A stretch of 64,000 bases of DNA from an uncultured Actinomycetota bacterium (GTDB lineage Bacteria; Actinomycetota; Actinomycetes; JAHEKZ01): the NCBI GenBank assembly GCA_963718235.1, contig CAVQYR010000001.1, positions 1,440,001 to 1,504,000 of the forward strand, read 5' to 3'. Below the pieces are notes generated by a model that was not told where the DNA came from, made no database searches, and was given only the letters and a program-made list of their open reading frames with translations. Positions 2,102 through 21,045 of this stretch are shown here, piece after piece. The stretch's first letter is position 1. Every line of letters starts with the position of its first letter. The translations under genes and the position numbers were made by a program.

Positions 2102-2677
2102 ATGACACTGACTGCTGACCGGGCCTTCGTAGACGGCCTCGGCTTCTTCGGCTCGGTGGTCGACCGGCTGGGACCGGACGACTGGGGGCGGGCGTCGGCC
2201 TGCGCGGGCTGGACGGTGCTCGATGTCCTCGGCCACCTGAGCACGGCGGTGGAGATGGGGATCAGCGTGCTGCAGGGGGCGCAGCCGACCTGGCCGGAGG
2301 TCGCACGCCCCGCGGAGCATGTCGTGGGCGATCCGCTCACCCACTGGCAGGCGCTGGAGTCGCGCGCCAGGGCGGCTCTGGTGGGGGCTGACCTCGACCT
2401 CGAGATGGACACGCCGATGGGTCCTCGCACGGTCGCCGATCGGCTCGCGTTCCCGGCCATCGACCTGTACGTGCACGCCTGGGACGTCGGCGCTCCGTGC
2501 GGGGTACCGGTCGAGCTCCCCACCGAGGTGATCGACTTCAGCCATGCCCAGCTCGACCCCTTCCCGGCCGAGATGATGCGCGGTGATCAGGGGGCGTTCG
2601 GACCGGAGGTGCCGGCACCCGCCGACGCCACGACCAGCGAGGCCTTCCTCGCCTGGACGGGCCGCTCGCCCCGCTGA
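2102..2677 (+). CDS. TIGR03086/mycothiol-dependent maleylpyruvate isomerase (DinB-like) family protein
   Basis: CAGWTVLDVLGHL, VHAWD and C-terminal LAWTGRSP motifs; AGAGGA RBS. Confidence 0.85.
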   Translation: MTLTADRAFVDGLGFFGSVVDRLGPDDWGRASACAGWTVLDVLGHLSTAVEMGISVLQGAQPTWPEVARPAEHVVGDPLTHWQALESRARAALVGADLDLEMDTPMGPRTVADRLAFPAIDLYVHAWDVGAPCGVPVELPTEVIDFSHAQLDPFPAEMMRGDQGAFGPEVPAPADATTSEAFLAWTGRSPR

Positions 2678-2707
2678 ACGGACTCCCGGGAGGGGCTCCG
2701 GGACGGC

Positions 2708-2735
2708 TCAAGGGCCTCGCGCTTCGCGTCGATGA
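2708..2735 (+). promoter_or_regulatory. Putative sigma-28 (FliA/WhiG-type) promoter of the GGDEF-EAL gene
   Basis: (GC)TCAA-16 nt-GTCGATGA, 30 nt before ATG 2766; same spacing as the site upstream of the tasA-like gene. Confidence 0.6.
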
Positions 2736-2765
2736 CTGCTGCGACGGCCAAACTGGGGGTACCGC

Positions 2766-4769
2766 ATGCGCCGATGGGGGCTGACCGCGACCTTCGCGGT
2801 GGTGAGCCTCCTTGCCATGGCCGCTGTGGGGATCCTTCTCGTCGTGGCGATTGGCAAGCAGGCGCGCGAGTACGCCCTCGACGAGGCCGTGCGCACGGCC
2901 GAGGCCTACGTCTCCGCCGGAGTTCTGGACGTCGCTTCGGTGGAAGCCCTGACCGGGCGGGATGTCCTGCTGGCGCAGGACCGCATGCAGATCACCGACC
3001 TGGCAGCACCAGACGACGACCTCCTCGCGCTGCGCCTGTGGACGGCCGACAGCCAGCTCGTCTTCGGGACCGACTCGCAGGACGGTCGCTTTCCCGACGG
3101 GATCCGGCTCGACCAGGCGCTGACCGGGGTGCCGGCACCCCGGGTCGTCGACGACCTGGGGAATGATGGACGGGTCCAGGGTCGTGCCTTGTCGGTCTAC
3201 CTGCCCGTGCGTGACGAGCGGACCGGGAACCCGGTGGGGGCGGCCGAGGTCGTCCTGGACTACACCGAGACCGAGGCGGCCGTCTCCAGGGCGGTCGGGA
3301 TCGTGGCCCTGCTGGTCGTGGCCGGGCTCGGTCTGCTGTGGCTGCTGCTCTTCCGGACGGTCTCCAATGCGAGCCGGCGGCTGCGCAGTCACGCCACCGA
3401 GAACGCCCGGCTCGCGCTCCTCGACCCCCTCACCGCCCTGCCGAACCGCCGACTGCTCTCCGAGCGGATCGACCGAGCGGTGACGGCCGCCACCAGGTCC
3501 GAGCACTCGATGGCCCTGCTCCTGCTCGACGTCGACGGGTTCAAGGAGGTCAACGACACCCTCGGCCATGACTTCGGGGACAAGCTGCTCGTCGAGGTGG
3601 CCGGCCGGGTCCGCGCGGTGGCCCGGCAGACCGACACGGTGGCCCGTCTGGGAGGCGACGAGTTCGCCATCCTGATGCCTTACGTCCATGACGTGGAGGA
3701 TGCCTCGGCCCTGGCCCGTCGGGTGCTGGGCGTGTTCGGGGACGCGTTCTCCCTGGGCGGCATGACGCTCCACGTGGACTCCAGCATCGGTGTGGCCCTG
3801 CTGCCCGACCACGCCGACGACCAGATGACCCTGATGCGTCACGCCGACGTTGCCATGTACGCCGCCAAGCGGGCCAAGCTCGGGTACGCCGTCTACTCCC
3901 AGGAAGGCGACCACCACAGCGCTCAGCGGCTCACCCTGATGGGGGACCTGCGCCGGGCCCTGACCGCCGACGACCAGCTGGCCCTGCACTACCAGCCCAA
4001 GATCAACCTGCGCACCGGACGGGTCGCTGGGCTCGAGGCGCTGCTTCGGTGGAACCACCCCGAGGTGGGCAGTGTCTCTCCGGCCGACTTCATCCCGCTC
4101 GCCGAACAGACGGGAATGGTCAGCGACCTCACCCAGTGGGTGCTGGAGCGGGCCGTCGAGCAGCTGGCCGTATGGGAGGGCGACCGAGCGGGGTTCCCTC
4201 TCGATCTTGCGGTCAACCTCTCCGCCCGCAACCTGCACGAGACCGAGCTGTCCGCACGGGTGCGCCAGCTGCTCCAGGACGCCCGGGTCAGCCCGGCCTG
4301 CCTGGAGCTGGAGATCACCGAGAGTGCCATCCCGGCCGATGCGGGCCGGGCCCAGGACGCGATGGCCGAGCTCTCCGAGCTCGGCGTCCGGCTGGCGGTC
4401 GACGACTTCGGTATCGGCAACACCTCGATCAGCCAGCTGCGCAGCATCCCACTGCGCACGCTCAAGATCGACCGCTCGTTCATCGCGCCGCTCACCACCG
4501 ATGCCGGAAGCATCGTCCTGGCGAGAGCAATCATCGACCTGGCCCACGAGTTCGGGCTGGTCACGGTCGCCGAAGGCGTGGAGGACACTGAGACGGCGAC
4601 GATCCTTCGTGACCTCGGCTGCGACCTCGCTCAGGGGTTCCTCTGGTCTCCCGCGGTGTCGGCCGCCGACCTCGTCGCCGTCGCCCGGGAGATCGACGCC
4701 AAGGCCTACGACGCGGTGCCCGTCACCAGTGGTTCTGCGCGTAGAGCTCGGCCACGTCGCTCGCGGTGA
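2766..4769 (+). CDS. Membrane-bound diguanylate cyclase/phosphodiesterase (2 TM + extracytoplasmic sensor + GGDEF + EAL)
   Basis: DPLTALPNRR, RQTD I-site, GGDEF, EAL, VNLS, ELEITE, DDFG, KIDRSF, AEGVE and QG motifs all present. Confidence 0.95.
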   Translation: MRRWGLTATFAVVSLLAMAAVGILLVVAIGKQAREYALDEAVRTAEAYVSAGVLDVASVEALTGRDVLLAQDRMQITDLAAPDDDLLALRLWTADSQLVFGTDSQDGRFPDGIRLDQALTGVPAPRVVDDLGNDGRVQGRALSVYLPVRDERTGNPVGAAEVVLDYTETEAAVSRAVGIVALLVVAGLGLLWLLLFRTVSNASRRLRSHATENARLALLDPLTALPNRRLLSERIDRAVTAATRSEHSMALLLLDVDGFKEVNDTLGHDFGDKLLVEVAGRVRAVARQTDTVARLGGDEFAILMPYVHDVEDASALARRVLGVFGDAFSLGGMTLHVDSSIGVALLPDHADDQMTLMRHADVAMYAAKRAKLGYAVYSQEGDHHSAQRLTLMGDLRRALTADDQLALHYQPKINLRTGRVAGLEALLRWNHPEVGSVSPADFIPLAEQTGMVSDLTQWVLERAVEQLAVWEGDRAGFPLDLAVNLSARNLHETELSARVRQLLQDARVSPACLELEITESAIPADAGRAQDAMAELSELGVRLAVDDFGIGNTSISQLRSIPLRTLKIDRSFIAPLTTDAGSIVLARAIIDLAHEFGLVTVAEGVEDTETATILRDLGCDLAQGFLWSPAVSAADLVAVAREIDAKAYDAVPVTSGSARRARPRRSR

Positions 4770-5664
4770 GTGCCCGGTTCTGCCAGACGGCGACCTCGTC
4801 GACTCGTCCGGAGAGCTGGTCACGGGTCGGTGCGCCCGGGCCGAACCCGGTCGTGGCGTCGTAGCCGACCCGCCAGTAGCCGTGGCCGTCGGGAGTCGGC
4901 GGGACCGCCGGCGGGGGAGGGTCGGTCGGCTCGTTGCCGGTGTAGACCGCCCCTGACGTGAGCGTGGGGTCGGAGTCCACCTCGACGCCGTCCACGTACA
5001 GGACCGTTCCCGATGGGCCGACCGTGGCGACGAGCAGGTGCGGCACGTCGTCGTTGACGGGGGTGGCTCCCTGCACGGTCGTCCGAGGGGCCAGGCCCAC
5101 GGTGAATGCGGGCCGCCCGTCCGGTCGAAGGTAGAGCACCCGGTCCCGGTTGACCGACGTCCCCCACCGGGCCGATCCCATGCCCAGGACCCAGCCACCC
5201 TGGTCGGAGGTCGTCTGGACCCAGGCGCTGATCGTGAAGGTGTCCGGGTTGGGCACCGCGGTGGGCTGGACCAGGAACTGGCTGCTCGTCGGCGTGCCCG
5301 GCAGGTCGAGGGAGTAGGTGTCGTCGCACTCGATGAGCCCAGCGCTGGTCGGCCCGAAGGTCAGCCCGACGTCCTGGACGGTGGCGTCCAGGTCGTTGGC
5401 GGTCGAGTCCTGCACGGAGGTCACCGCGGGCGGTGCCTGCTCGCCGAGCCGCCAGTAGAACGAGGGGTTGGCGGCGAGCACGGCGGCCGCGTACGACGGT
5501 CCGGTCGAGCAGGCGGAGCGCGTGGTCATCGTGTTGCCGACGACGACGGCGGTGTCGTTGAACTGCGCCGTGGCCGTCATCGGCGGCTGCACCCCCACGG
5601 CCAGGCCGGTCAGGGTGGCTGCTACCGCGAGACCGGCGCCCCTAGACCACAGCGTGGGCGACAT
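4723..5664 (-). CDS. LamG-like (concanavalin A fold) exported protein with SipW-class signal peptide
   Basis: Signal ending TATAQFND; YWRLGE, FTISAW, HLLVAT, LYVDG and GRVDEVAVW LamG motifs. Confidence 0.85.
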   Translation of the reverse strand: MSPTLWSRGAGLAVAATLTGLAVGVQPPMTATAQFNDTAVVVGNTMTTRSACSTGPSYAAAVLAANPSFYWRLGEQAPPAVTSVQDSTANDLDATVQDVGLTFGPTSAGLIECDDTYSLDLPGTPTSSQFLVQPTAVPNPDTFTISAWVQTTSDQGGWVLGMGSARWGTSVNRDRVLYLRPDGRPAFTVGLAPRTTVQGATPVNDDVPHLLVATVGPSGTVLYVDGVEVDSDPTLTSGAVYTGNEPTDPPPPAVPPTPDGHGYWRVGYDATTGFGPGAPTRDQLSGRVDEVAVWQNRALTASDVAELYAQNHW

Positions 5665-6283
5665 CTTCGTGCCTTTGTCCCGGTCGGCGCTGCTGCGGCT
5701 CGTCGGTCAGGACGGGTGCGGGCGCCGGCCGCCACGACCAGAGCTCGGCCAGCAGCAGGAGCAGGAAGGGGGGAGCGAAGAGGACGAGCTTGCCGACGAA
5801 CGTTCTCGACCACAGGAGCCAGGCACCCCACCCGGCGTAGCCGTCGACCACGAGGTAGCGCACCTGACCCACGGGGGTGAGGTTGGGGTCCGGGTCCTCG
5901 TTGTTCTGGCCCTTGGTCTGCACGTAGTGGTCGGTCTCGATCCGACCAGACGGGCCGTACACCGGTGAGCCGTCGACCCCGGTTCGCGGCAGGGTCTTGA
6001 GGGCCACGATCTCGTGGGTGACGTAGGTGTGGCTCTCGAGGCTCTCCTTGAACGTGATCACCTGACCCACCTTCAACTGGTCTGGGGTCACCTGTTCGGC
6101 GACGACGACCGAACCGGCCGGATAGGTCGGGGCCATGCTGCCGCCGGTGAGCACGAGCAGGGTCTGGCCGCGCAGCTCGTAGACCAACGGACCGCCGTAG
6201 GCGAGCAGGGCACCGGCGAGGGAGGCGAGCAGGAGGCCCCGAAAGGCCCACCGCCGCGCCCTGGTCCTCGCCGGCGCCGTCAT
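5642..6283 (-). CDS. sipW: ER-type signal peptidase I (SipW-like, S26B)
   Basis: N-terminal TM, VLTGGSMAPT (Ser), VTHEI (His), TKGQNNEDPD, C-terminal TM; between two SipW-class substrates. Confidence 0.9.
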   Translation of the reverse strand: MTAPARTRARRWAFRGLLLASLAGALLAYGGPLVYELRGQTLLVLTGGSMAPTYPAGSVVVAEQVTPDQLKVGQVITFKESLESHTYVTHEIVALKTLPRTGVDGSPVYGPSGRIETDHYVQTKGQNNEDPDPNLTPVGQVRYLVVDGYAGWGAWLLWSRTFVGKLVLFAPPFLLLLLAELWSWRPAPAPVLTDEPQQRRPGQRHEDVAHAVV

Positions 6284-6285
6284 GC

Positions 6286-6918
6286 TCAGTTGTTGACGGT
6301 CTGCTCGGCGTCGAACGTCAGCGTGATCGTGCTGGTGGCGTTCTGGTACGCGTTGCCGGTAGCCAGGGGCAGAGCCACCCGGAAGCAGAGGTTCTCGGTG
6401 TCGCCGGCGATCAGCGACCGGTCGCCGGGCTGCAGACCCTGGGCGTTGTCACCGATGAGGTTCGCTGGGCTGCTCAGGTCGGTCGGACCACCCTCGAGGG
6501 TGCCCAGCGAGACATCCCCCGCTGCACACGCGATGGGCGCCACACCGCTGTAGACACTGATCCGCAGCTGGGTGCGCAGCGCCTTGGCGTCCGGGTTGTC
6601 CGCGGACGCGGTCAGGGCGTAGCGCAGCCGCAGCGATCCGTTGTTCTCGACCCGCACGTTGCCGTACACGTCGTCCCCAGGTGCCATGTTCCCGGCCGTG
6701 AGCGCGGCCGTGCCAGGGGTGGTTCCCAAGCGGACCGTGCCCGTGGTGATGTCGCTGGCGCCCAGCGTCTGGGAGTCGGTGAACAAGGCGCTGGACAGCC
6801 CGATCCCCACGAAGGCGAGAGCGGCCAGCGCGGTCGCGGCCCCGACCCGGCGCCTTCGATCTCGTTGGCCTTGGTCGTCCGGCCGGTCTCTCTCGAGCTC
6901 GGTCCACAGGTCGTTCAT
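6286..6918 (-). CDS. TasA/CalY-family exported fibre-subunit-like protein
   Basis: RRRR-hydrophobic-SSALFTD signal, then TTGTVRL, NMAPGD, VENNGSL.LRY and C-terminal GNAYQ..T.TLTFDAEQ typical of TasA family. Confidence 0.85.
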   Translation of the reverse strand: MNDLWTELERDRPDDQGQRDRRRRVGAATALAALAFVGIGLSSALFTDSQTLGASDITTGTVRLGTTPGTAALTAGNMAPGDDVYGNVRVENNGSLRLRYALTASADNPDAKALRTQLRISVYSGVAPIACAAGDVSLGTLEGGPTDLSSPANLIGDNAQGLQPGDRSLIAGDTENLCFRVALPLATGNAYQNATSTITLTFDAEQTVNN

Positions 6919-6982
6919 GTCGGCCCCCCGGGGTCGTCGGTCGGAAGGGCCGACGCTTGTTCGTCGTCCTCCCGTGTCCGCG

Positions 6983-7010
6983 TTATCGGCAGCGGAGGAC
7001 GCATGGTTGA
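6983..7010 (-). promoter_or_regulatory. Putative sigma-28 (FliA/WhiG-type) promoter of the tasA-sipW-lamG operon
   Basis: Minus strand (GC)TCAA-16 nt-GCCGATAA; -10 matches the canonical sigma-28 GCCGATAA exactly. Confidence 0.7.
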
Positions 7011-7059
7011 GCGCTTGCGCCAAGCAGGCTCACCCGATCGGCCCAGCGGGGCGACCCCG

Positions 7060-7106
7060 GACGACCGAAGGCCCGGACCGAGGGGAGGTCCGGGCCTTCG
7101 GTCGTC
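7060..7106. terminator. Perfect 20-bp stem hairpin, likely terminator of PKD protein gene 1
   Basis: GACGACCGAAGGCCCGGACC / GGTCCGGGCCTTCGGTCGTC with 7-nt loop, 9 nt past the stop at 7116. Confidence 0.8.
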
Positions 7107-7115
7107 TTGTGGTGG

Positions 7116-10100
7116 CTAGGTCACGGTGACAGTTCGAGTGGTCGTGCTGGACCGGTTCCACCCGTCCGTGACGGTCAGGGTGATCGTGTACGTGCCCGGA
7201 GCGGTGTAGGTGCGCGACGGTGACGCCGCGGTACTGGCCGCCGAGCCGTCGCCCCAGTTCCAGGAGTACCGGATCACGTCACCGTTGGGGTCGCTCGTGC
7301 CGAAGCTGTTCATCTGGCACACCCTGAGCGTGCAGCTGGCGGTGAAGGTCACCGTCGGCGGCTGGTTGGCAGCTGGTTCGATCAGCACGACCTGTCGGGT
7401 CGTGCTGGCTGCCTTGCCCCATCCGTCGGTGGTGGTCAAAGTGATCGTGTACGTGCCCGGAATTGCGTAGGTGTGAGCCGGTGCGGTGCCTGTGCCGGTC
7501 GCCGTGCCGTCTCCCCAGTTCCACACATATGCGATCGTGTCCCCGACGTTCGGGTCGACCGTTCCCGTGCTGCTCGTGGAGCAGGCCAGCGCGATGACAG
7601 CTGGTGAGGAACGTCGGAACCGGTGCCACGTTGCCGGCTGGCTCGGTGATGGTCACCGACAGCGCGGCCGTTGAGGTGACGTTCCACTCGTCCCTCACTG
7701 TCAGCACCACCGAGTAGGTACCCGGCGCGGTGTAGGTCTTGATCGGGATCGGCCCGCTCCCCGTGCCTTGGTTGGTACCGAAGTTCCAGGAGTAGACGAG
7801 CGCCGTCGGGTTCTCGTCGGTCGAGCCGCGACCGTCGAACGAGCAGACGTTCTGCGCGCACGAGACTGTCGCGGAGGCGACCGGCGGGTTGTTCACCGGG
7901 TGGGTCACCACGATGCCCACCGAGGTGCGGGTTTCCCCGATCTGGTCGTGGTGGTCGGTCGGTCGCACCAGGACGCTGTAGGTGCCGTCCGGGATCACCG
8001 GTGTGGTGTACGAGAAGTTCGACCCAGGGCTGCCGGGGCTGTTCAAGAACGCCTGCCGCCAGCTCGGCGTCGTGCTGGTGAACGTGCCCGTCGAGCTCAT
8101 GTACTGCCCCGCCGAGTTGACGATCCCGACCTCGACCCGGGCGATGCTGATGTCGTCGATGGCTCGGCCACTGACGACGATCTTGCCCTCGGTGAAGGTG
8201 GAGCCGTCGACCGGCTGACCCAGTGCCGCCTCGAAGGCGGGCGGAAGGTCACCGGGGTAGTAGCGGTAACGAGCGGTCGCCCCCGTCGTGGACGGGTCCT
8301 GCTGTCCTGACGTGTCGAAGGCGAAGGCGGTGATGCTGTAGTCACCTCCGGTGGGCAGAACGATGGGCAGCGTCCAGGCCGTACTGGTCGCACCGGGCGC
8401 AGCCAACGTCGCGTTGACCCGGTTGTAGCCGGAGAGCATCTGCCCGTTGTCCTGCATGTACCGACCCGTGTCGTTGTCGAACACGGTGAGCTCCACGCTC
8501 TGCACGCCCTTGTCGTCGGTGGCCGTTCCGGCCAGGTTGAGCTCAGGCACAGTGACCGTGAACGTCCCCGTCGGGTTGATCAAGCCGTCGGGCAGGAGGT
8601 CGCCGGGCACCTGGGCGCTGACGGTCAGCCGCCCCTGGTTCGCGGACGATGTGACGAGGTCGTCGTTGTCCGTCGCCCGAACCGTGAAGGTGTACGTGCC
8701 TGGGACTCAGGTTGAACGGCGTCGTGTACGACCAGTTGTAGCTGGCCGCGTTGATGTTGACCGGTGAGACCCGGTAGTTGCCAGCCGCGATGCCGACTCC
8801 CCAGGTGCCGTCGGCTCCCAGGTTCTCCCGGGTCGTGGTGTTCCGCAGAGTGATCTCCACGTTCTTCAGCCGGTCGTCGTCGGACGCGGTTCCGGAGAAC
8901 GTCATCGGCGAGCCCGGGTTGGCCACCACAGTCGGCACCGCGAACGGCGGGGTCATCGACACGGGCTGGCTGATGCTGACCGTCGGTGCCACGGCGTTCG
9001 AGTTGACCTGAAGTCGCGGACCGCGCTCCGCAGGTCAGCCTGGCCAGCCGTGTCCACTGCGGTGGCGCTGCCCCGCCAGACGCCCTCGTGGGGGAGGGTG
9101 ACCTCGTACGACCAGGTGGCCGACGTTGCTCCGACCACGTCTGGAACGCCGCGGAACGTGTTGAAGATCGGGTCCGACCGTGCCGTCGTTCTGCAGGTAG
9201 TTCTGGTTCTCGTCGCGGAACCAGTAGGTCAGCGAGTTGACCCCGTGGTCGTCGGTCGCCGTTCCCGTCATCGTGAAGGTCGTCGACGTCTGGATCCCAC
9301 TCGGACCGGTGATGTTGGTCGTCGGCGTCTGGTCGTCGAAGCTGAACGACTCGATCTTCTTGACTGCCTTGGTGGCATCGTTCGTGCCGTTGGTGCCGTA
9401 GGTCTTTGCCATGATCTGCAGGTTGTGGTTGCCCGTGATGGTGACTGGCAGAGACCACGGCGTCACGCCGCCACCGGGCGTACCCAGCGTGGCGTAGATG
9501 TTGTTGCTCCCACCCCAGGTGACACCGTCGTCCTGCAGGTAGCGCTTCGTGTCGCGGTCCTGGATCTCGACCTGTACCCGGCGGATCCCCTGGGGGTTCT
9601 TGGCCGTCCCCTGGATCGTGAATGGCACGCCCGAGGTGACCACGCGACCCTCAATCGGTGAGGTCGATCGTGGTGTCGGTGGTCGAGGGTGCTGGAACGG
9701 AGTTGAAGTCGTAGAAGGCGACACGTCCAGTGCGGACCCCGCCTTGGAACATTCCGTCGCCGGCGACGAAGAGCCCGCGTGAGGTCGCCTCCATGGCCTT
9801 GTTGCCCTCGAACGAGTTCGAGCCAGGGTTCCACTCGAGTGCCGTGCCGGTCGTCGGGTCGAGCGCGCCGATGTGGTCGCGACGCACGACCTGGTCACCG
9901 AGGCCGTAGCCGGACAGGCCCTGGCCGGTGCCGTAGCCGACGTTGTCAAGCCCGGGCCACGGCTGGTTCGCCGTCGGCGACTCGTTCCAGCTGAAGTGTC
10001 CACCGACGTAGACAGCGCGCTCGGTGATCGCGATCGAGTAGATGCTGTCGAAGCAGCGGGCGATCCACAGCGGCTCGACGTTGTCACCACCTGCGATGGG

Positions 10101-11072
10101 ATAGGCGATCGCGGTGTCGCTGATCGGTGGTCGGTCGCCGCCGGAGCCACTGCCGACCACGAAGTACTGGTCGTTCGGGGCGATGTCCCCGGCGTAGATG
10201 CGCTGGATGCCGCCGACGATGGCCAGGTTGTCGTCCCAGAGGCGAGTACGCCAGGGGAGGAGCTGCTTGGTCTGGGTGTTGATCAGGCCGATGCCGAGGC
10301 GGTCCTGTCCGGCGATCTTGCGGCCGGTGTGGACGACGAGGAGCTTGCTGTCGTCGTGGGTCAGCTTGAGCTGCTGCACGGTGAGCGCGCCGTCGACGCC
10401 GATACCGCCGGAGATCGAGTTGTCGAAGGAGAGGTCGACCGCCCCAGTGGTGCCGTTGAGGGCGGCTAGGCCCGTGCGCAACTGACCGTTGATCCGGCTG
10501 AACCGGCCGCCGACGTAGACCGTCGAGTTTGTTGCGGCCAGGGCGGTGGCGTAGTTGTTGGTGCTCTGCGTCACGGCGAAGTTCGCAACCGGGGCCCCGG
10601 TCGTGAGATTGAGGCTGGCGACCTTCTGCCGTGCCACTCCGTTGACCGTGCTGAAGGAGCCGGCGACGTACAGCTTGGTGCCGTCGGGTGAGGCCTCGAC
10701 TGCGTTGACGCCGCCGTTGAACGTCGGCCGGAACGTGGTGTCGATCAAGCCGGTGTTGATGTTGTAGGACGCCAGATAGCGCTGGTTGATCGTGGCGGTG
10801 GGGGCGATGGTGTTGGCCAGTGAGGTGAAGGACCCCGCGATGAACACTCGGTTGCCCACGACCTCCATGTCCCAGATCTCACCGTTGCTGATCCGGGGCG
10901 TGTCCTTGCGCGGCACAGACGGCACGAGACCGGTGTGGCCGGGGAGCGCCTGGGCGGCGAGGACGGACGGCCCGACGAGGGCTGCCTGCGCGGGAGCGGC
11001 CACCAGCGGAACACCCATGACCCCGACGGCCACGGTCAGGGCACTGGCCCAGAAACGGTTGCGTACCGACAT
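7116..11072 (-). CDS. Giant secreted protein, paralog 1: signal peptide, beta-propeller-like region, Ig-like repeats, 3 PKD domains; about 5 frameshifts
   Basis: ORF pieces 9651-11072, frame of 9035-10150, 8953-9138, 8543-8992, 7279-8610 and 7116-7526 join collinearly with paralog 2; WNWGDG / [15 protein letters not shown] motifs. Confidence 0.85.
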
Positions 11073-11346
11073 TCGGTGACCCCTCATCTTGGCTCGCGGG
11101 AAGCTCAGAGCCGACCCCCCGGCGCCCACCTACTCAACGGAGAGGCCATCCTCGCAGCCGTTCCGGGCGGCCGCCAAAGAGTTCCGGGAAGTCGCCTCGG
11201 CTGACTACTGAGAGTGATCGAGTGGTCCGTGAGGGTCACCCTTGCTCGGGAACCTTCCTGGTTCGGTCCGTGCGATGGTCCGGCCGCGGCCGGGACTGTC
11301 AGACCCTCGCGAGACGGTCGTGGCGTCGAGATGGGGTGAGCGTCTG

Positions 11347-17407: not shown

Positions 17408-20400
17408 TTGACCTGCTCGAGCTGCGGGACGAACAACGAGCCCCATCGCAAGTTCTGCCGCGAGTGTGGCGAACGGCTTGTCCAGCGTGTGTGTGGCTTG
17501 CGGTGCCCCCAATGCAGCCGATGACAAGTTCTGCGGCGAGTGCGGCGCGCCGATGTCGGCGGAGTCGTCAGGCCCTGTCGGCGCACCGTCCGAGAACCAG
17601 CAGCGGTCAGAGGGAGGAGCCGAAAGCACCGAACGCCGGCTGGTCTCGGTCTTGTTCGCCGACCTGGTGGGCTCCACCCCGTTCGCCGAGGGGCACGACC
17701 CCGAAGACGTCCGAGCGATGCTCACCGCGTACTTCGAGATCGGCGTCGAAGGCCATAGAACGCCACGGGGGAGTAGTGGAGAAGTTCATCGGTGATGCCG
17801 TGATGGCGCTCTGGGGTGCGCCCACCGCACATGAGGACGACGCAGAGCGAGCCGTGCGGGCCGCGCTGGACATCGTGGACCGAGTCGCCGCCCTGGGCGC
17901 CGAGCTCGGGGTGACGCTGCAGGCGCGGGTGGGCGTGCTCACCGGCGAGGCGGTCGCCACGGTCGGAGCGGTCGGTCAGGGCTTGGTGGCCGGCGACCTG
18001 GTGAACACCGCGGCGCGTCTCCAGGGGGCTGCCGACCCGGCACGGTGCTCGTCGGCGAGAGCACGTGTCGCGCTGCCTCCATGGGGGTGGTCTTCACGCC
18101 CATCGAGCCGCTGATCCTCAAGGGCAAGCAGGACAAGGTGCCAGCCTGGCGTGCGCTGCGGGTGGTGAGCGAGCTGGGTGGCTCGGGGCGAGGGCTTGCG
18201 CCCGAGCCACCGTTCGTCGGCCGCGATGAGGAGTTGCGGCTGACCAAGGAGCTGCTGCACGCGACAGGTCGGGAGGGTCGGCCGCGCCTGCTGACGGTCA
18301 CCGGGGTCGCCGGAGTCGGCAAGTCGAGGCTTCTCTGGGAGCTGCGCAAGTATGTCGACGGTCTTACCGAGGACACGTACTGGCACCAGGGCCGCTGCCC
18401 CGCCTACGGCGAGGGGGTCTCGTTCTGGGCCTTCGCCGAGATGGTGCGGGGCCGGGCCGGCATCGCCGAGACTGACGACGAGGCCACACAACGTTCGGCG
18501 CTGGCGACCTGTCTCACCGATCTGGTCGCCGACGACGACGAGCGTCGTTGGATGGAGCCCCGCCTCGGTCACCTGCTCGGCCTTGATCCAGCGCCGCCGG
18601 GTGGCCGCGAGGAGCTCTTCGGCGCGTGGCGACGCTTCGTCGAGCGAGTGGCCGAACGTGGAACAACGGTCATGGTCTTCGAGGACCTGCACTGGGCCGA
18701 CCCAGGACTGCTCGACTTCGTCGAGTCCTTGCTGGCCTGGTCGCGCCAGTCGCCGGTGCTCGTGGTCTCAGCGGCCCGCCCGGAGCTGAGCGAGCGTCGA
18801 CCGACCTGGGGTGCCACCGCACGGGCATCGTCCGGCCTGCACCTCGACCCCCTTCCCGTCGAAGACATCCGCGCCTTGGTCACCGGCTACGTCGAGGGGC
18901 TGCCCGACGACGCTCTGGAGCGCCTCCTCGAGCGTGCGGAGGGCATCCCCCTCTATGCAGTCGAGACGGTGCGCATGTTGGCCGATCGCGGCTTCCTCGA
19001 GCAGGACGGCCCGATCTACCGAGTAGTGTCCGAGCTCGCCTTCACTCTCGAGGTGCCTGAGACCTTGCACGCCCTCGTGGCGGCGCGGCTTGATGCATTG
19101 CCGGAGGCTGAGCGGAGCCTGGTGCTCGACGCTGCCGTGACCGGTCACAGCTTCACCCTCGGCGCCGTCTGTGCTGTCTCCGGACGTCCGGCTGAAGAGG
19201 TCGAGCCGCATCTGCGCGTGCTCGTCGTCAAGGAGGTCTTCGACCAGGAACAGGACCCGCGGTCGGCGGAACGAGGACAGTTCCACTTCGTCCAGTCGGT
19301 GATCCAGGAGGTCGCCTACTCGACGTTGAGTAAGGCAGCGAGGCGCAGCAAGCATCTGGTGTGCGCTCAGTGGTTCGCGGGTCTGCACGAGGAGGAGATC
19401 GCCGGGCTCGTGGCCGTCCACTACCTCGAGGCGTTCCGCGCCGAGCCCTCCGCGGCAGACGCTGAGGAGGTCGCCGGGCGCGCTCGACACTGGCTGCGGG
19501 TGGCCGCTGAGCGGGCGTTCTCGCTCGGCTCCCCTGAGACGGCCTTCGACTATGCGGTTCTCGGGCTGACCCTTGCGACGACACCGAAGGACCGGGCCGC
19601 CCTCCACGCGACGGCCGCGCGAGGCGCCCGGTACAGCGGTCGGCTCGAGATCGCCTGGGAGCACATCGCCGCTGCCTCCGACGCGTACCGCCTGGTCGAC
19701 GATGCGGACAGCGAAGGTCAGATGCTCTCGGGGGCGACCCCTGGCTTCGAGGGTGCGGCGCGTGCGGACGTCCTGCATCGGCTGGAGGAGGTCGACGGTC
19801 GACTGGACGGGCCCGGCCCGACCAAGGTGCTGGTCTTGGCGGCCCTGTCCAAGGCGGCGTCGATGGACGGTCGCCCCGAGGCGGCACTGCGCTGGTCGGA
19901 GGAGGCGATGGTCCGCGCGCAGTCGATCGACGACGACGAGGCGCTCATCGAAGCCGCCGGCGCTCGGGCCTACGCCCTGTTCAACGCCGACCGGCAGTTC
20001 GAAGCTGCGCTGCTCAGCGAGGGCAGGATGAACCTCGCGCGGCGCAGCGGCAGTGTCCAGGCGTTGCTCGGTGCAGCCATGGAGGGTGGGGTGATGCTGG
20101 CCACGTCGGAACCCCGTCGGGCCCTCGAGGCCTTTAGCGAGGCGGCCGACTGCGCGGCTCGTGCCGGGATCGGACCGGCGCAGAGCATGGCCCTGGCCAA
20201 CGCGGCGGAGGCCGCGATCGACCTGGGCGAGCTGGACACCGCTCAGCGCTGTCTTCGCGAAGCTGGCGAGATCGACGGCGGCGACCGGCTCGACCAGGAC
20301 GGGATCGCCCTGTGCCACGCCCTGCTGGACGCCTACCGCGGCGACGTGGAGACCGTGGACGACGCTCTTGACGAGCTCGAGGCGAGGCGCCGAGGGGCGT

Positions 20401-20885: not shown

Positions 20886-21045
20886 CCCCTGCCCCATCGG
20901 GCGCCACGTGTACCGGTGGCGCACAAAGTGAGCTCCATGCGATGGGCTGGCCCGGCAAGGTCACGGCTCGATGGTCCGTCATGGACCGACGGTCAACTGG
21001 CGAGGACCCGCTCGCTTCGGCGAACGGGTCCTCGCCAGTTGAGCC

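Follow-up and report, generated by a model that had tools for sequence, protein, structure and literature searches.

A tasA-sipW-lamG operon and a convergent GGDEF-EAL gene behind WhiG-type promoter-like sites in an uncultured actinobacterium

The stretch of DNA analysed here (64,000 nucleotides (nt), hereafter called the window; C1:1440001-1504000, 70 % G+C) belongs to an uncultured Actinomycetota bacterium, whose genome (G000) comprises 3.17 Mb on two contigs (C1 and C2) and is 95 % complete. It harbors a compact group of four genes: a TasA-like gene, a gene for a SipW-class signal peptidase and a LamG gene, arranged as an operon on the reverse strand, and a GGDEF-EAL gene facing them on the forward strand (Table 1). 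This feature is real and conserved, and we read it as a union of two known systems, TasA-type extracellular fibres and transcription by the sigma factor WhiG under the control of cyclic diguanylate (c-di-GMP).

The gene set and the tight operon described in the original prediction were confirmed by the coordinates of the open reading frames (ORFs). The TasA-like and peptidase genes are separated by two nt (6284-6285), the peptidase and LamG genes overlap by 23 nt (5642-5664), and the operon does converge on a GGDEF-EAL gene with intact motifs. At their 3' ends, lamG and the facing GGDEF-EAL gene share 47 nt (4723-4769), an overlap that was kept in relatives; if transcribed together, the two genes would yield mRNAs with mutually antisense ends. 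Translation of the TasA-like protein most likely starts at ATG 6918 rather than at the TTG of the longest ORF, because the longer form would contain its own promoter box. A terminator-like stem-loop further upstream (-47.6 kcal/mol, z -7.2; none of 200 shuffled sequences folded equally well) would insulate the operon from upstream transcription. No sigma-70-like promoter was found in positions 2500-7300, which, together with this hairpin, fits an operon-specific promoter.

Table 1. Features of the fibre gene group and its surroundings (positions in the window).
Feature	Position	Strand	Length or sequence	Basis or remark
WhiG2-type promoter-like site of GGDEF-EAL	2706..2735	+	GCTCAA 2706-2711 (TCAA 2708-2711), 16 nt, GTCGATGA 2728-2735	30 nt before ATG
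GGDEF-EAL gene	2766..4769	+	667 amino acids (aa)	ORF call, Pfam
LamG gene	4723..5664	-	313 aa	ORF call, Pfam Laminin_G_3
Signal peptidase gene (SipW-class)	5642..6283	-	213 aa	ORF call, TIGR02228
TasA-like ORF	6286..7023	-		longest form, TTG start
TasA-like gene, likely extent	6286..6918	-	210 aa	from ATG at 6918
WhiG2-type promoter (predicted) of tasA-sipW-lamG	6983..7012	-	GCTCAA 7012-7007 (TCAA 7010-7007), 16 nt, GCCGATAA 6990-6983	64 nt before ATG
Conserved box	7027..7044	-	GGGCCGATCGGGTGAGCC	~15 nt upstream of tasA -35 element; by eye
Stem-loop	7059..7106	-	perfect, 20 base pairs	directly 3' of upstream PKD gene; terminator-like

The TasA-like protein scored above the cut-off of PF12389 (camelysin/TasA; 32.2 bits vs 22.5), and the same domain was displayed by 118 of the 120 listed among its 174 homologues (E <= 1e-3). 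The pre-protein is composed of a long arginine-rich n-region, a transmembrane (TM) segment at residues 25-47 and a jellyroll core that spans residues 60-210. The n-region (residues 1-24), charged and of unusual length, contains a conserved arginine cluster (family consensus RxRRRR) before the TM segment; no such region was present in the LamG pre-protein. A model built by AlphaFold2 (AF2) from 39 sequences reached a mean predicted local distance difference test (pLDDT) score of 76.7. The block means were 86-95 for residues 71-200; N-terminal residues 36-58 (pLDDT below 50) were left unmodelled. Searched with Foldseek, this model retrieved TasA structures 5OF1_A, 5OF2 and 5OF1_B as its three best matches (E 1e-6, probability 1.0) and the fibre structure 8AUR as the ninth; superposed on TasA 5OF2 with VIA, it gave a Z of 9.7 and a root-mean-square deviation of 3.5 over 136 aligned residues. 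As modelled, the protein has a TasA-type jellyroll fold, the absence of which would have spoken against the original prediction.

Several results weigh against this reading of the proteins. The PF12389 match spans only residues 25-100, the NCBIfam equivalogs of B. subtilis TasA (NF046066; 24.4 bits vs 450) and of Bacillus SipW (NF046067; 36.3 vs 190) remained far from their cut-offs, and unrelated jellyrolls reached a VIA Z of 9.0, barely under the 9.7 of TasA. Structure-based identity to TasA was ~15 %. By the equivalog scores, the TasA-like protein and its peptidase are distant family members and not orthologues of Bacillus TasA and SipW. In the profile search first suggested for this locus, PF12389 and TIGR02228 (see below) exceeded their cut-offs, and no TIGR04088-type model was matched at E <= 0.01. 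A role as camelysin-like protease or spore-coat protein, in place of a polymerising subunit, is very improbable for the PF12389 protein. The Pfam name Peptidase_M73 and the database labels 'spore coat-associated protein N' and 'camelysin' given to some homologues would favor such a function, but these are older designations of the TasA/CalY family, in which the members of solved structure form fibres (PMC9674648); the fold, moreover, matches TasA, and no metalloprotease motif was noticed, although no formal search for one was made.

The peptidase scored 58.2 with TIGR02228, the model for archaeal/endoplasmic reticulum (ER)-type signal peptidase I (cut-off 51.85). It displayed TM segments at both termini and a putative catalytic pair composed of Ser49 (GGSMAPT) and His90 (VTHEIV). 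Its best solved relatives were SEC11C and SEC11A; both residues aligned with those of human SEC11C, in a weak match (E 0.007). These features point to a dedicated ER/archaeal-type (SipW-class) signal peptidase I.

Both SipW-class cleavage sites announced for the presumed substrates were present. Cleavage is predicted at S43/A44 in the TasA-like protein (ALFTD...; site SSALFTD) and at T32/A33 in the LamG protein (AQFND...; site TAQFND), where it would free a segment resembling the TasA-like donor strand. The TasA-like family displayed the consensus N-terminus ALFTDxxxVGxNxFTTGTV, with a conserved A-x-F-T-D...N-x-F-T-T-G motif. In B. subtilis, residues 28-38 of TasA are the donor strand, and the similar N-terminus of TapA was proposed to provide the first strand (PMC9674648). 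By analogy, the TasA-like subunits would polymerise by N-terminal donor-strand exchange, for which the unmodelled residues 36-58 and the conserved motif give indirect support.

The LamG protein matched Laminin_G_3 (PF13385) over residues 134-305 (E 4.3e-14, 53.3 bits vs a cut-off of 27.6). Its 23 homologues shared the consensus N-terminus AQLTDxxTVxGNxVxTRxAC, and the donor-like segment, which precedes two invariant cysteine residues, was conserved in 22 homologues and also in orthologues of only 34-42 % identity. Aligned with the TasA-like family by hhalign, the LamG family matched over 49 N-terminal columns, that is the signal and ~20 mature residues (probability 85.9 %, E 5.3e-6). A six-frame scan of the genome for the N-terminal motif behind a hydrophobic stretch gave three matches: the TasA-like protein, the LamG protein and a membrane protein, the last being taken as a false hit. 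The first two are accordingly the only convincing candidates in the genome for A-x-F-(T/N)-D substrates, and their position beside the peptidase gene marks them as its putative cognate substrates. A motif search for further accessory proteins with a donor-type N-terminus in related loci gave patchy matches.

The LamG protein may then be a tip or minor subunit of the fibre, a proposal drawn only from the shared N-terminal segment. Displaying a donor-type N-terminus without a TasA body, it could donate a strand and not accept one, and so, by analogy, would sit at one end of the fibre. The structure model of the LamG protein speaks against this placement, as its mean pLDDT was 58.9 (for which reason it was left out of the fold search) and its N-terminus was unmodelled. 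Such an unstructured, low-confidence N-terminus would also suit a genuine fibre operon in which LamG is no part of the fibre but a lectin or carbohydrate-binding protein secreted on its own, having only the peptidase in common with the subunit and an N-terminus that serves for peptidase recognition alone. Five of the related loci described below, which contained tasA and sipW in a different layout without LamG, agree with such a separation. We regard it as possible but the less probable view: the similarity between the LamG and TasA-like proteins extends ~20 residues past the cleavage site, over the donor-strand positions of B. subtilis TasA (PMC9674648), this segment outlasted the divergence of the LamG orthologues, and the order tasA-sipW-lamG was fixed wherever these three genes occurred together (15 of 15 loci, window included).

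The fourth gene encodes a protein with EAL (1.7e-73) and GGDEF (1.1e-44) domains according to Pfam. Its motifs, namely RQTD-x5-GGDEF at 287-300 (RxxD I-site at 287, GGDEF at 296), EAL at 424, EITE at 516, DDFG at 546, EGVE at 603 and QGF at 623, indicate that GGDEF, I-site and EAL catalytic motifs are intact; the protein is a predicted c-di-GMP enzyme, in which either the cyclase or the phosphodiesterase activity may dominate. Two TM segments (4-34 and 169-202) flank an extracytoplasmic domain of ~135 aa, presumed to be a sensor, for which the ESM Atlas offered a weak sCache_3_2 lead, found in 36 % of the members of one cluster.

Upstream of both transcription units, the motif GCTCAA-16 nt-G(C/T)CGAT(A/G)A of the original prediction was found in place, and it matches the published WhiG2 consensus, T(A/C)AA-N16-GCCGATAA, as distinct from that of WhiG1, CTCA-N16-17-GCCGAACT (bioRxiv 10.64898/2026.01.14.699351). 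The published search rule asks for a position within 200 bp of the start codon and a fixed CGA, and allows one mismatch at -10 positions 1-2 (bioRxiv 10.64898/2026.01.14.699351). The tasA box matched the consensus at 12 of 12 positions. Just upstream of its -35 element lies the box GGGCCGATCGGGTGAGCC, and similar boxes, CC(A/G)ATC(G/A)GGTG, were seen in G012, G003 and L083 (loci L029, L031 and L083; read by eye, without statistics); this box may be an operator for another regulator.

The exact box pattern occurred in three copies in the 3.17-Mb genome, the third before pilM, and GCCGATAA in seven. As the genome scan first suggested, CTCAA-N16-GCCGA was overrepresented: it gave 13 non-coding hits, compared with 5, 4, 3, 7 and 5 at phase-matched spacers N10, N13, N19, N22 and N25, and 0-3 at other spacers. 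A looser pattern, CTCA-N16-19-[GC]CCGA, was uninformative (451 hits) and was replaced by this spacer control and by a position matrix. The latter was trained on seven sites (five from pilus genes, one of a methyl-accepting chemotaxis protein (MCP) gene and one of a DUF4388 gene), both test sites being left out. The tasA site scored 24.33, third of ~6.3 million genome positions and first among those outside the training set; the GGDEF-EAL site scored 18.45, tying for ranks 12-13 genome-wide and placing among the six best non-training positions.

The absence of a sigma-28 gene would have spoken against the proposed promoters; instead, both WhiG and its partner RsiG were present. A single sigma factor of class TIGR02479 was detected (283.4 bits vs a cut-off of 189.6), which scored 395 bits against S. 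venezuelae WhiG (6PFJ_A). Its gene lies in the neighborhood comM-dprA-xerC-whiG-M23-tsf-pyrH-frr-cdsA, which we take to resemble the Streptomyces whiG locus. A 192-aa RsiG candidate (C2:40523-41101) matched S. venezuelae RsiG (6PFJ_T) over its full length (E 1.6e-37) and displayed two E(X)3S(X)2R(X)3Q(X)3D motifs (twin-motif). No flagellin was found in this 95 %-complete genome. By its score, the c-di-GMP motifs of its cognate RsiG and this lack of a detected flagellin, the sigma factor would be of the WhiG2 type. The rsiG gene (L112:4524-5102, in locus L112, C2:36841-41101) overlaps the end of the upstream ORF by four nt; divergent from it lies a gene for an 894-aa protein with DUF4388 and coiled-coil repeats, which has its own WhiG-type site (C2:39570).

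Other candidate targets were concentrated in a type IV pilus cluster (pilMNO-pilin-pilC-pilT-pilB; C1:1932893-1951000; L004, L005), which contained five CTCAAG-N15-GCCGA sites. Its genes encode PilM/N/O, four N_methyl pilin-like proteins, PilC, two T2SSE ATPases, a Wzy_C protein, a small Ras-like GTPase and a DUF4388 protein. A flagellar regulon was considered and rejected, as no flagellin was found and the suspected cluster of sites proved to be this pilus cluster. Other N16 sites precede an MCP gene, the DUF4388 gene beside the rsiG operon, a ClpB-like gene and several hypothetical genes. A GAF-GGDEF gene (C1:833025-834725; L014) is preceded by CTCAAG-N16-GCCGATAA (N17 if counted from CTCAA), the box ending seven nt before the predicted start; it may be a second c-di-GMP enzyme controlled by WhiG.

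TasA-like proteins were found in eight of 61 related genomes (that of the window counted) and in four of 19 other genomes of the same family, and WhiG exceeded its cut-off in all 12 same-family genomes searched. The same-family tallies for WhiG and for the sensor domain include four genomes marked as unpublished, G048, G050, G054 and G025, on which no specific claim rests. Patchy in the first case and constant in the second, these distributions indicate that the cassette is accessory and the sigma factor core. Three family members, G003, G006 and G012, displayed all four genes in the same arrangement at 60-76 % identity, and six flanking-gene queries found no match in the corresponding 16-kb loci. 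In G006, lamG (L030 6519-7440) and, in G003, the GGDEF-EAL gene (L031 4680-5126) each matched in two pieces and different frames, which points to frameshifts or assembly errors.

A wider scan found 188 relatives and retained 79 loci, all from genomes labelled as metagenome-assembled genomes (MAGs) and mostly from Actinomycetota and Chloroflexota. The order tasA-sipW-lamG was displayed by 14 of the 79. Within the resulting 15 actinobacterial tasA-sipW-lamG loci (window counted), a box CTCA(A/G/T)-N15-16-(G/A)(C/T)CGA was situated 7-133 nt before tasA in 14, and the strict WhiG2 pattern was found in five; a strict match was seen in only one of 47 loci classed as non-actinobacterial. As background, the relaxed pattern occurred 73 times over 460,104 nt, a rate of 0.035 per 220 nt. 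Among close relatives, tasA boxes read CTCAT-N16-GCCGAGGG and CTCAA-N16-GTCGAGAG. At 41-53 % TasA identity the box was kept although the DNA around it was no longer alignable, and WhiG exceeded its cut-off in four of five of the genomes to which these loci belong.

These results make it likely that the tasA operon is under WhiG control. Against this count the doubtful tasA box of G006 (L035; CTTAA-N16-ACCGATGG, seven nt before ATG), the lack of a box in L059, a -35 element that reads CTCAG or CTCAT and not TCAA in many loci, and the fact that related loci are not independent samples, so that the counts overstate independence. The last two points could also be read to mean that WhiG does not use these boxes in vivo, that a housekeeping or another alternative sigma factor reads the operon, and that the conservation of the motif reflects shared ancestry. 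We consider this unlikely. The region lacks a detectable sigma-70-like site, the genome holds a single TIGR02479-class sigma, the tasA site ranked third on a matrix trained independently of it, and its motif persisted, well above background, between flanks that can no longer be aligned.

The case of the GGDEF-EAL gene is less clear, and here we lean only slightly towards WhiG control. Its box deviates from the consensus by one mismatch (T at -10 position 2, giving GTCGA), which the published rule allows. Admitting GTCGA in the genome scan added six non-coding hits at N16 and +8, +4, +4, +1 and +2 at the control spacers; the variant was thus not enriched. Similar boxes were found in only three of ten other enzyme loci, all from close relatives (L033, L034 and L035), among which the forms CTCAA-N15-GTCGATGT, CTTAA-N16-GTCGATAT and CTCAA-N16-GTCGATAC were seen, each 30-31 nt before ATG. 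Furthermore, eight tasA-sipW-lamG loci (L036-L042, L082) lacked a GGDEF-EAL gene within 6 kb. All of this tells against a shared promoter type or against a tie between the enzyme and the fibre operon. Of the conservation that the original prediction called for, the four-gene linkage and both boxes were retained in three relatives with differing flanks; the tasA box of G006 was poor and the enzyme box was confined to close relatives.

It is conceivable, at well below even chances, that only the tasA operon depends on WhiG, that a different promoter serves the GGDEF-EAL gene, whose GTCGAT box would be the site of another factor or simply inherited, and that the link is post-translational, through an action of local c-di-GMP on fibre export or assembly. 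Besides the lack of enrichment and the narrow distribution of the box, a different conserved block, GGGTGAAAT...CCTACCGTCGG, in the five loci where the enzyme gene lies directly upstream of tasA would favor this arrangement. But the sequence of the enzyme box, its N15-16 spacing and its distance from ATG were kept in four genomes while the surrounding intergenic DNA diverged, the box is among the best non-training positions of the genome and satisfies the published rule, and in L067 and L083, where the enzyme gene is situated behind lamG in the same orientation, its co-transcription from the tasA box is plausible. The block of the five loci (L048, L055, L071, L073 and L084), GGGTGAAAT ... CCTACC(G/T)TCGG, lies ~100-200 nt upstream of the GGDEF-EAL start; L048 and L055 also hold CTCAA-N16-CCCGAT upstream of that gene.

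Regardless of its promoter, the enzyme gene accompanied tasA closely. A full-length orthologue, sensor domain included (45-75 % identity), adjoined tasA in 10 of the 79 loci. Three arrangements were seen: the genes are convergent in L033-L035; in the five loci just named, which lack LamG, the orthologue immediately precedes tasA in the same orientation; and in L067 and L083 it comes directly after lamG. Within the family, searches for the sensor domain found an orthologue of 68-72 % identity in G003, G006 and G012 alone, which carry the TasA module; other family matches did not exceed 37 % identity and look like a core paralogue, of which G000 holds a copy at C1:311665. This GGDEF-EAL orthologue is strictly coupled to tasA in the genomes.

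On balance, the four genes are reasonably likely to form an accessory cassette for a TasA-type extracellular fibre under the RsiG-(c-di-GMP)-WhiG switch. At low c-di-GMP, RsiG would release WhiG, and RNA polymerase with WhiG would transcribe tasA-sipW-lamG along with genes for pili and chemotaxis and, probably, the GGDEF-EAL gene that faces the operon. Cleavage by the dedicated ER-type peptidase, immediately ahead of A-x-F-(T/N)-D in both pre-proteins, would set free an N-terminal strand. That of each TasA-like subunit would complete the beta-sandwich of the next one, as in donor-strand exchange of B. subtilis TasA, and a fibre would result, one end of which the LamG protein, like TapA, would occupy as nucleator, anchor or lectin tip. 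The membrane-bound GGDEF-EAL enzyme would sense an extracellular cue and alter c-di-GMP, thereby feeding back on RsiG-WhiG in either direction. From the interpretation put forward initially, an actinobacterial TasA-type pilus wired in a feedback loop with its own c-di-GMP enzyme, the WhiG/RsiG pair, the TasA fold, the linkage and the tasA promoter were supported, and of the refuting outcomes named with it none was encountered among those examined; the GTCGA enzyme box was not enriched, and the feedback idea is not new.

A bolder and distinctly tentative version, which we rather doubt as a whole, holds that in an uncultured, non-flagellated clade of Actinomycetota low c-di-GMP frees WhiG to switch on type IV pili, chemoreceptors and a LamG-nucleated or LamG-tipped donor-strand TasA fibre at once, that the travelling sensor GGDEF-EAL enzyme reports fibre assembly or ligand contact to RsiG-WhiG, and that the cassette, a fibre with its own second-messenger sensor, is self-contained and horizontally mobile. 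If true, such a low-c-di-GMP programme would reverse the usual rule by which high c-di-GMP means matrix production.

Both halves of the proposed system have well-studied counterparts. Like the tapA-sipW-tasA operon of B. subtilis, the one described here combines, in one operon, a dedicated ER-type peptidase, a TasA-family jellyroll subunit and an accessory protein which, at its mature N-terminus, is similar to the donor strand of that subunit. It differs in gene order (tasA-sipW-lamG), in the LamG domain that replaces the body of TapA and in its low identity to TasA; moreover, the B. subtilis operon is controlled by SinR (PMC9674648), whereas a WhiG-type promoter and an uncultured actinobacterial host are encountered here. 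The sipW-bsaA-bsaB-bsaC locus of C. perfringens likewise encodes TasA-like subunits beside a SipW peptidase, has a large accessory protein in which the adhesive-type domain is vWA, and is functionally linked to type IV pilus genes; there, however, this link consists of pilin-dependent secretion and the subunits are isopeptide-locked, while here a promoter type is shared with the pili and the accessory domain is LamG (PMC11580942). In archaeal and bacterial loci of the TasA superfamily (AbpA, AbpX and Tafi), too, the subunit gene adjoins that of a signal peptidase I and those of components predicted to be minor or to form the tip (bioRxiv 10.64898/2026.01.04.697558). The TasA cluster map of that preprint includes Actinomycetota, but its available portions report no experimental actinobacterial member and no link to a sigma factor or to c-di-GMP.

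As for regulation, close orthologues of both proteins of the RsiG-(c-di-GMP)2-WhiG switch known from S. venezuelae and Rubrobacter radiotolerans were found here, together with the same consensus. Type IV pilus genes and c-di-GMP enzymes are among the predicted targets here, as they are in Rubrobacter, where three of 12 mapped WhiG promoters lie in a pilus cluster and five before diguanylate cyclase/phosphodiesterase (DGC/PDE) genes (PMC8325347). That WhiG controls pili and DGC/PDE genes was also predicted phylum-wide, and feedback loops were discussed (bioRxiv 10.64898/2026.01.14.699351). Such control is therefore already known, and the idea of a feedback between WhiG and DGC/PDE is not new. 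In the main text of the latter preprint the terms 'TasA', 'SipW', 'signal peptidase', 'LamG' and 'camelysin' do not occur, while its supplementary tables S4-S6 may list such a target. The literature searched contained no described actinobacterial TasA fibre and no paper linking TasA to WhiG; TasA-superfamily fibres have so far been studied in Bacillota and Archaea.

Three elements appear new: the TasA-type operon among conserved targets of the WhiG type, the accessory LamG protein, whose N-terminus is of the donor type, and a dedicated GGDEF-EAL enzyme travelling with the fibre genes. Should the proposal hold, a matrix or adhesion fibre would join the c-di-GMP-RsiG-WhiG regulon, and a fibre system would carry its own second-messenger enzyme through three gene arrangements. 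The LamG protein, as a natural counterpart of TapA that bears a lectin domain, would then be suited to the study of nucleation or capping of donor-strand fibres. Related loci were also found in MAGs labelled Angustibacter and Actinotalea, and bench tests would be feasible if cultured members of these genera carry the locus.

Directly upstream of the hairpin, on the reverse strand, ~4 kb of coding sequence for a PKD/Big_7 surface protein (window 7116-11129) is split into four ORFs. An in-frame stop (9651-9653) divides 8625-9650 from 9654-11129, and two frame changes are situated near 8625-8706 and 7279-7652. This broken region, which was not conserved beside the fibre module in relatives, would be either a pseudogene or the product of long-read indel errors. 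Two weaker WhiG-like sites were noted elsewhere in the window, both on the reverse strand: CGCTCGAC...GCCGAAGA at 18644 (C1:1458644), scored as coding by a crude gene caller, and CTCAAC-N16-GCCGA (N17 from CTCAA) at 21043 (C1:1461043).

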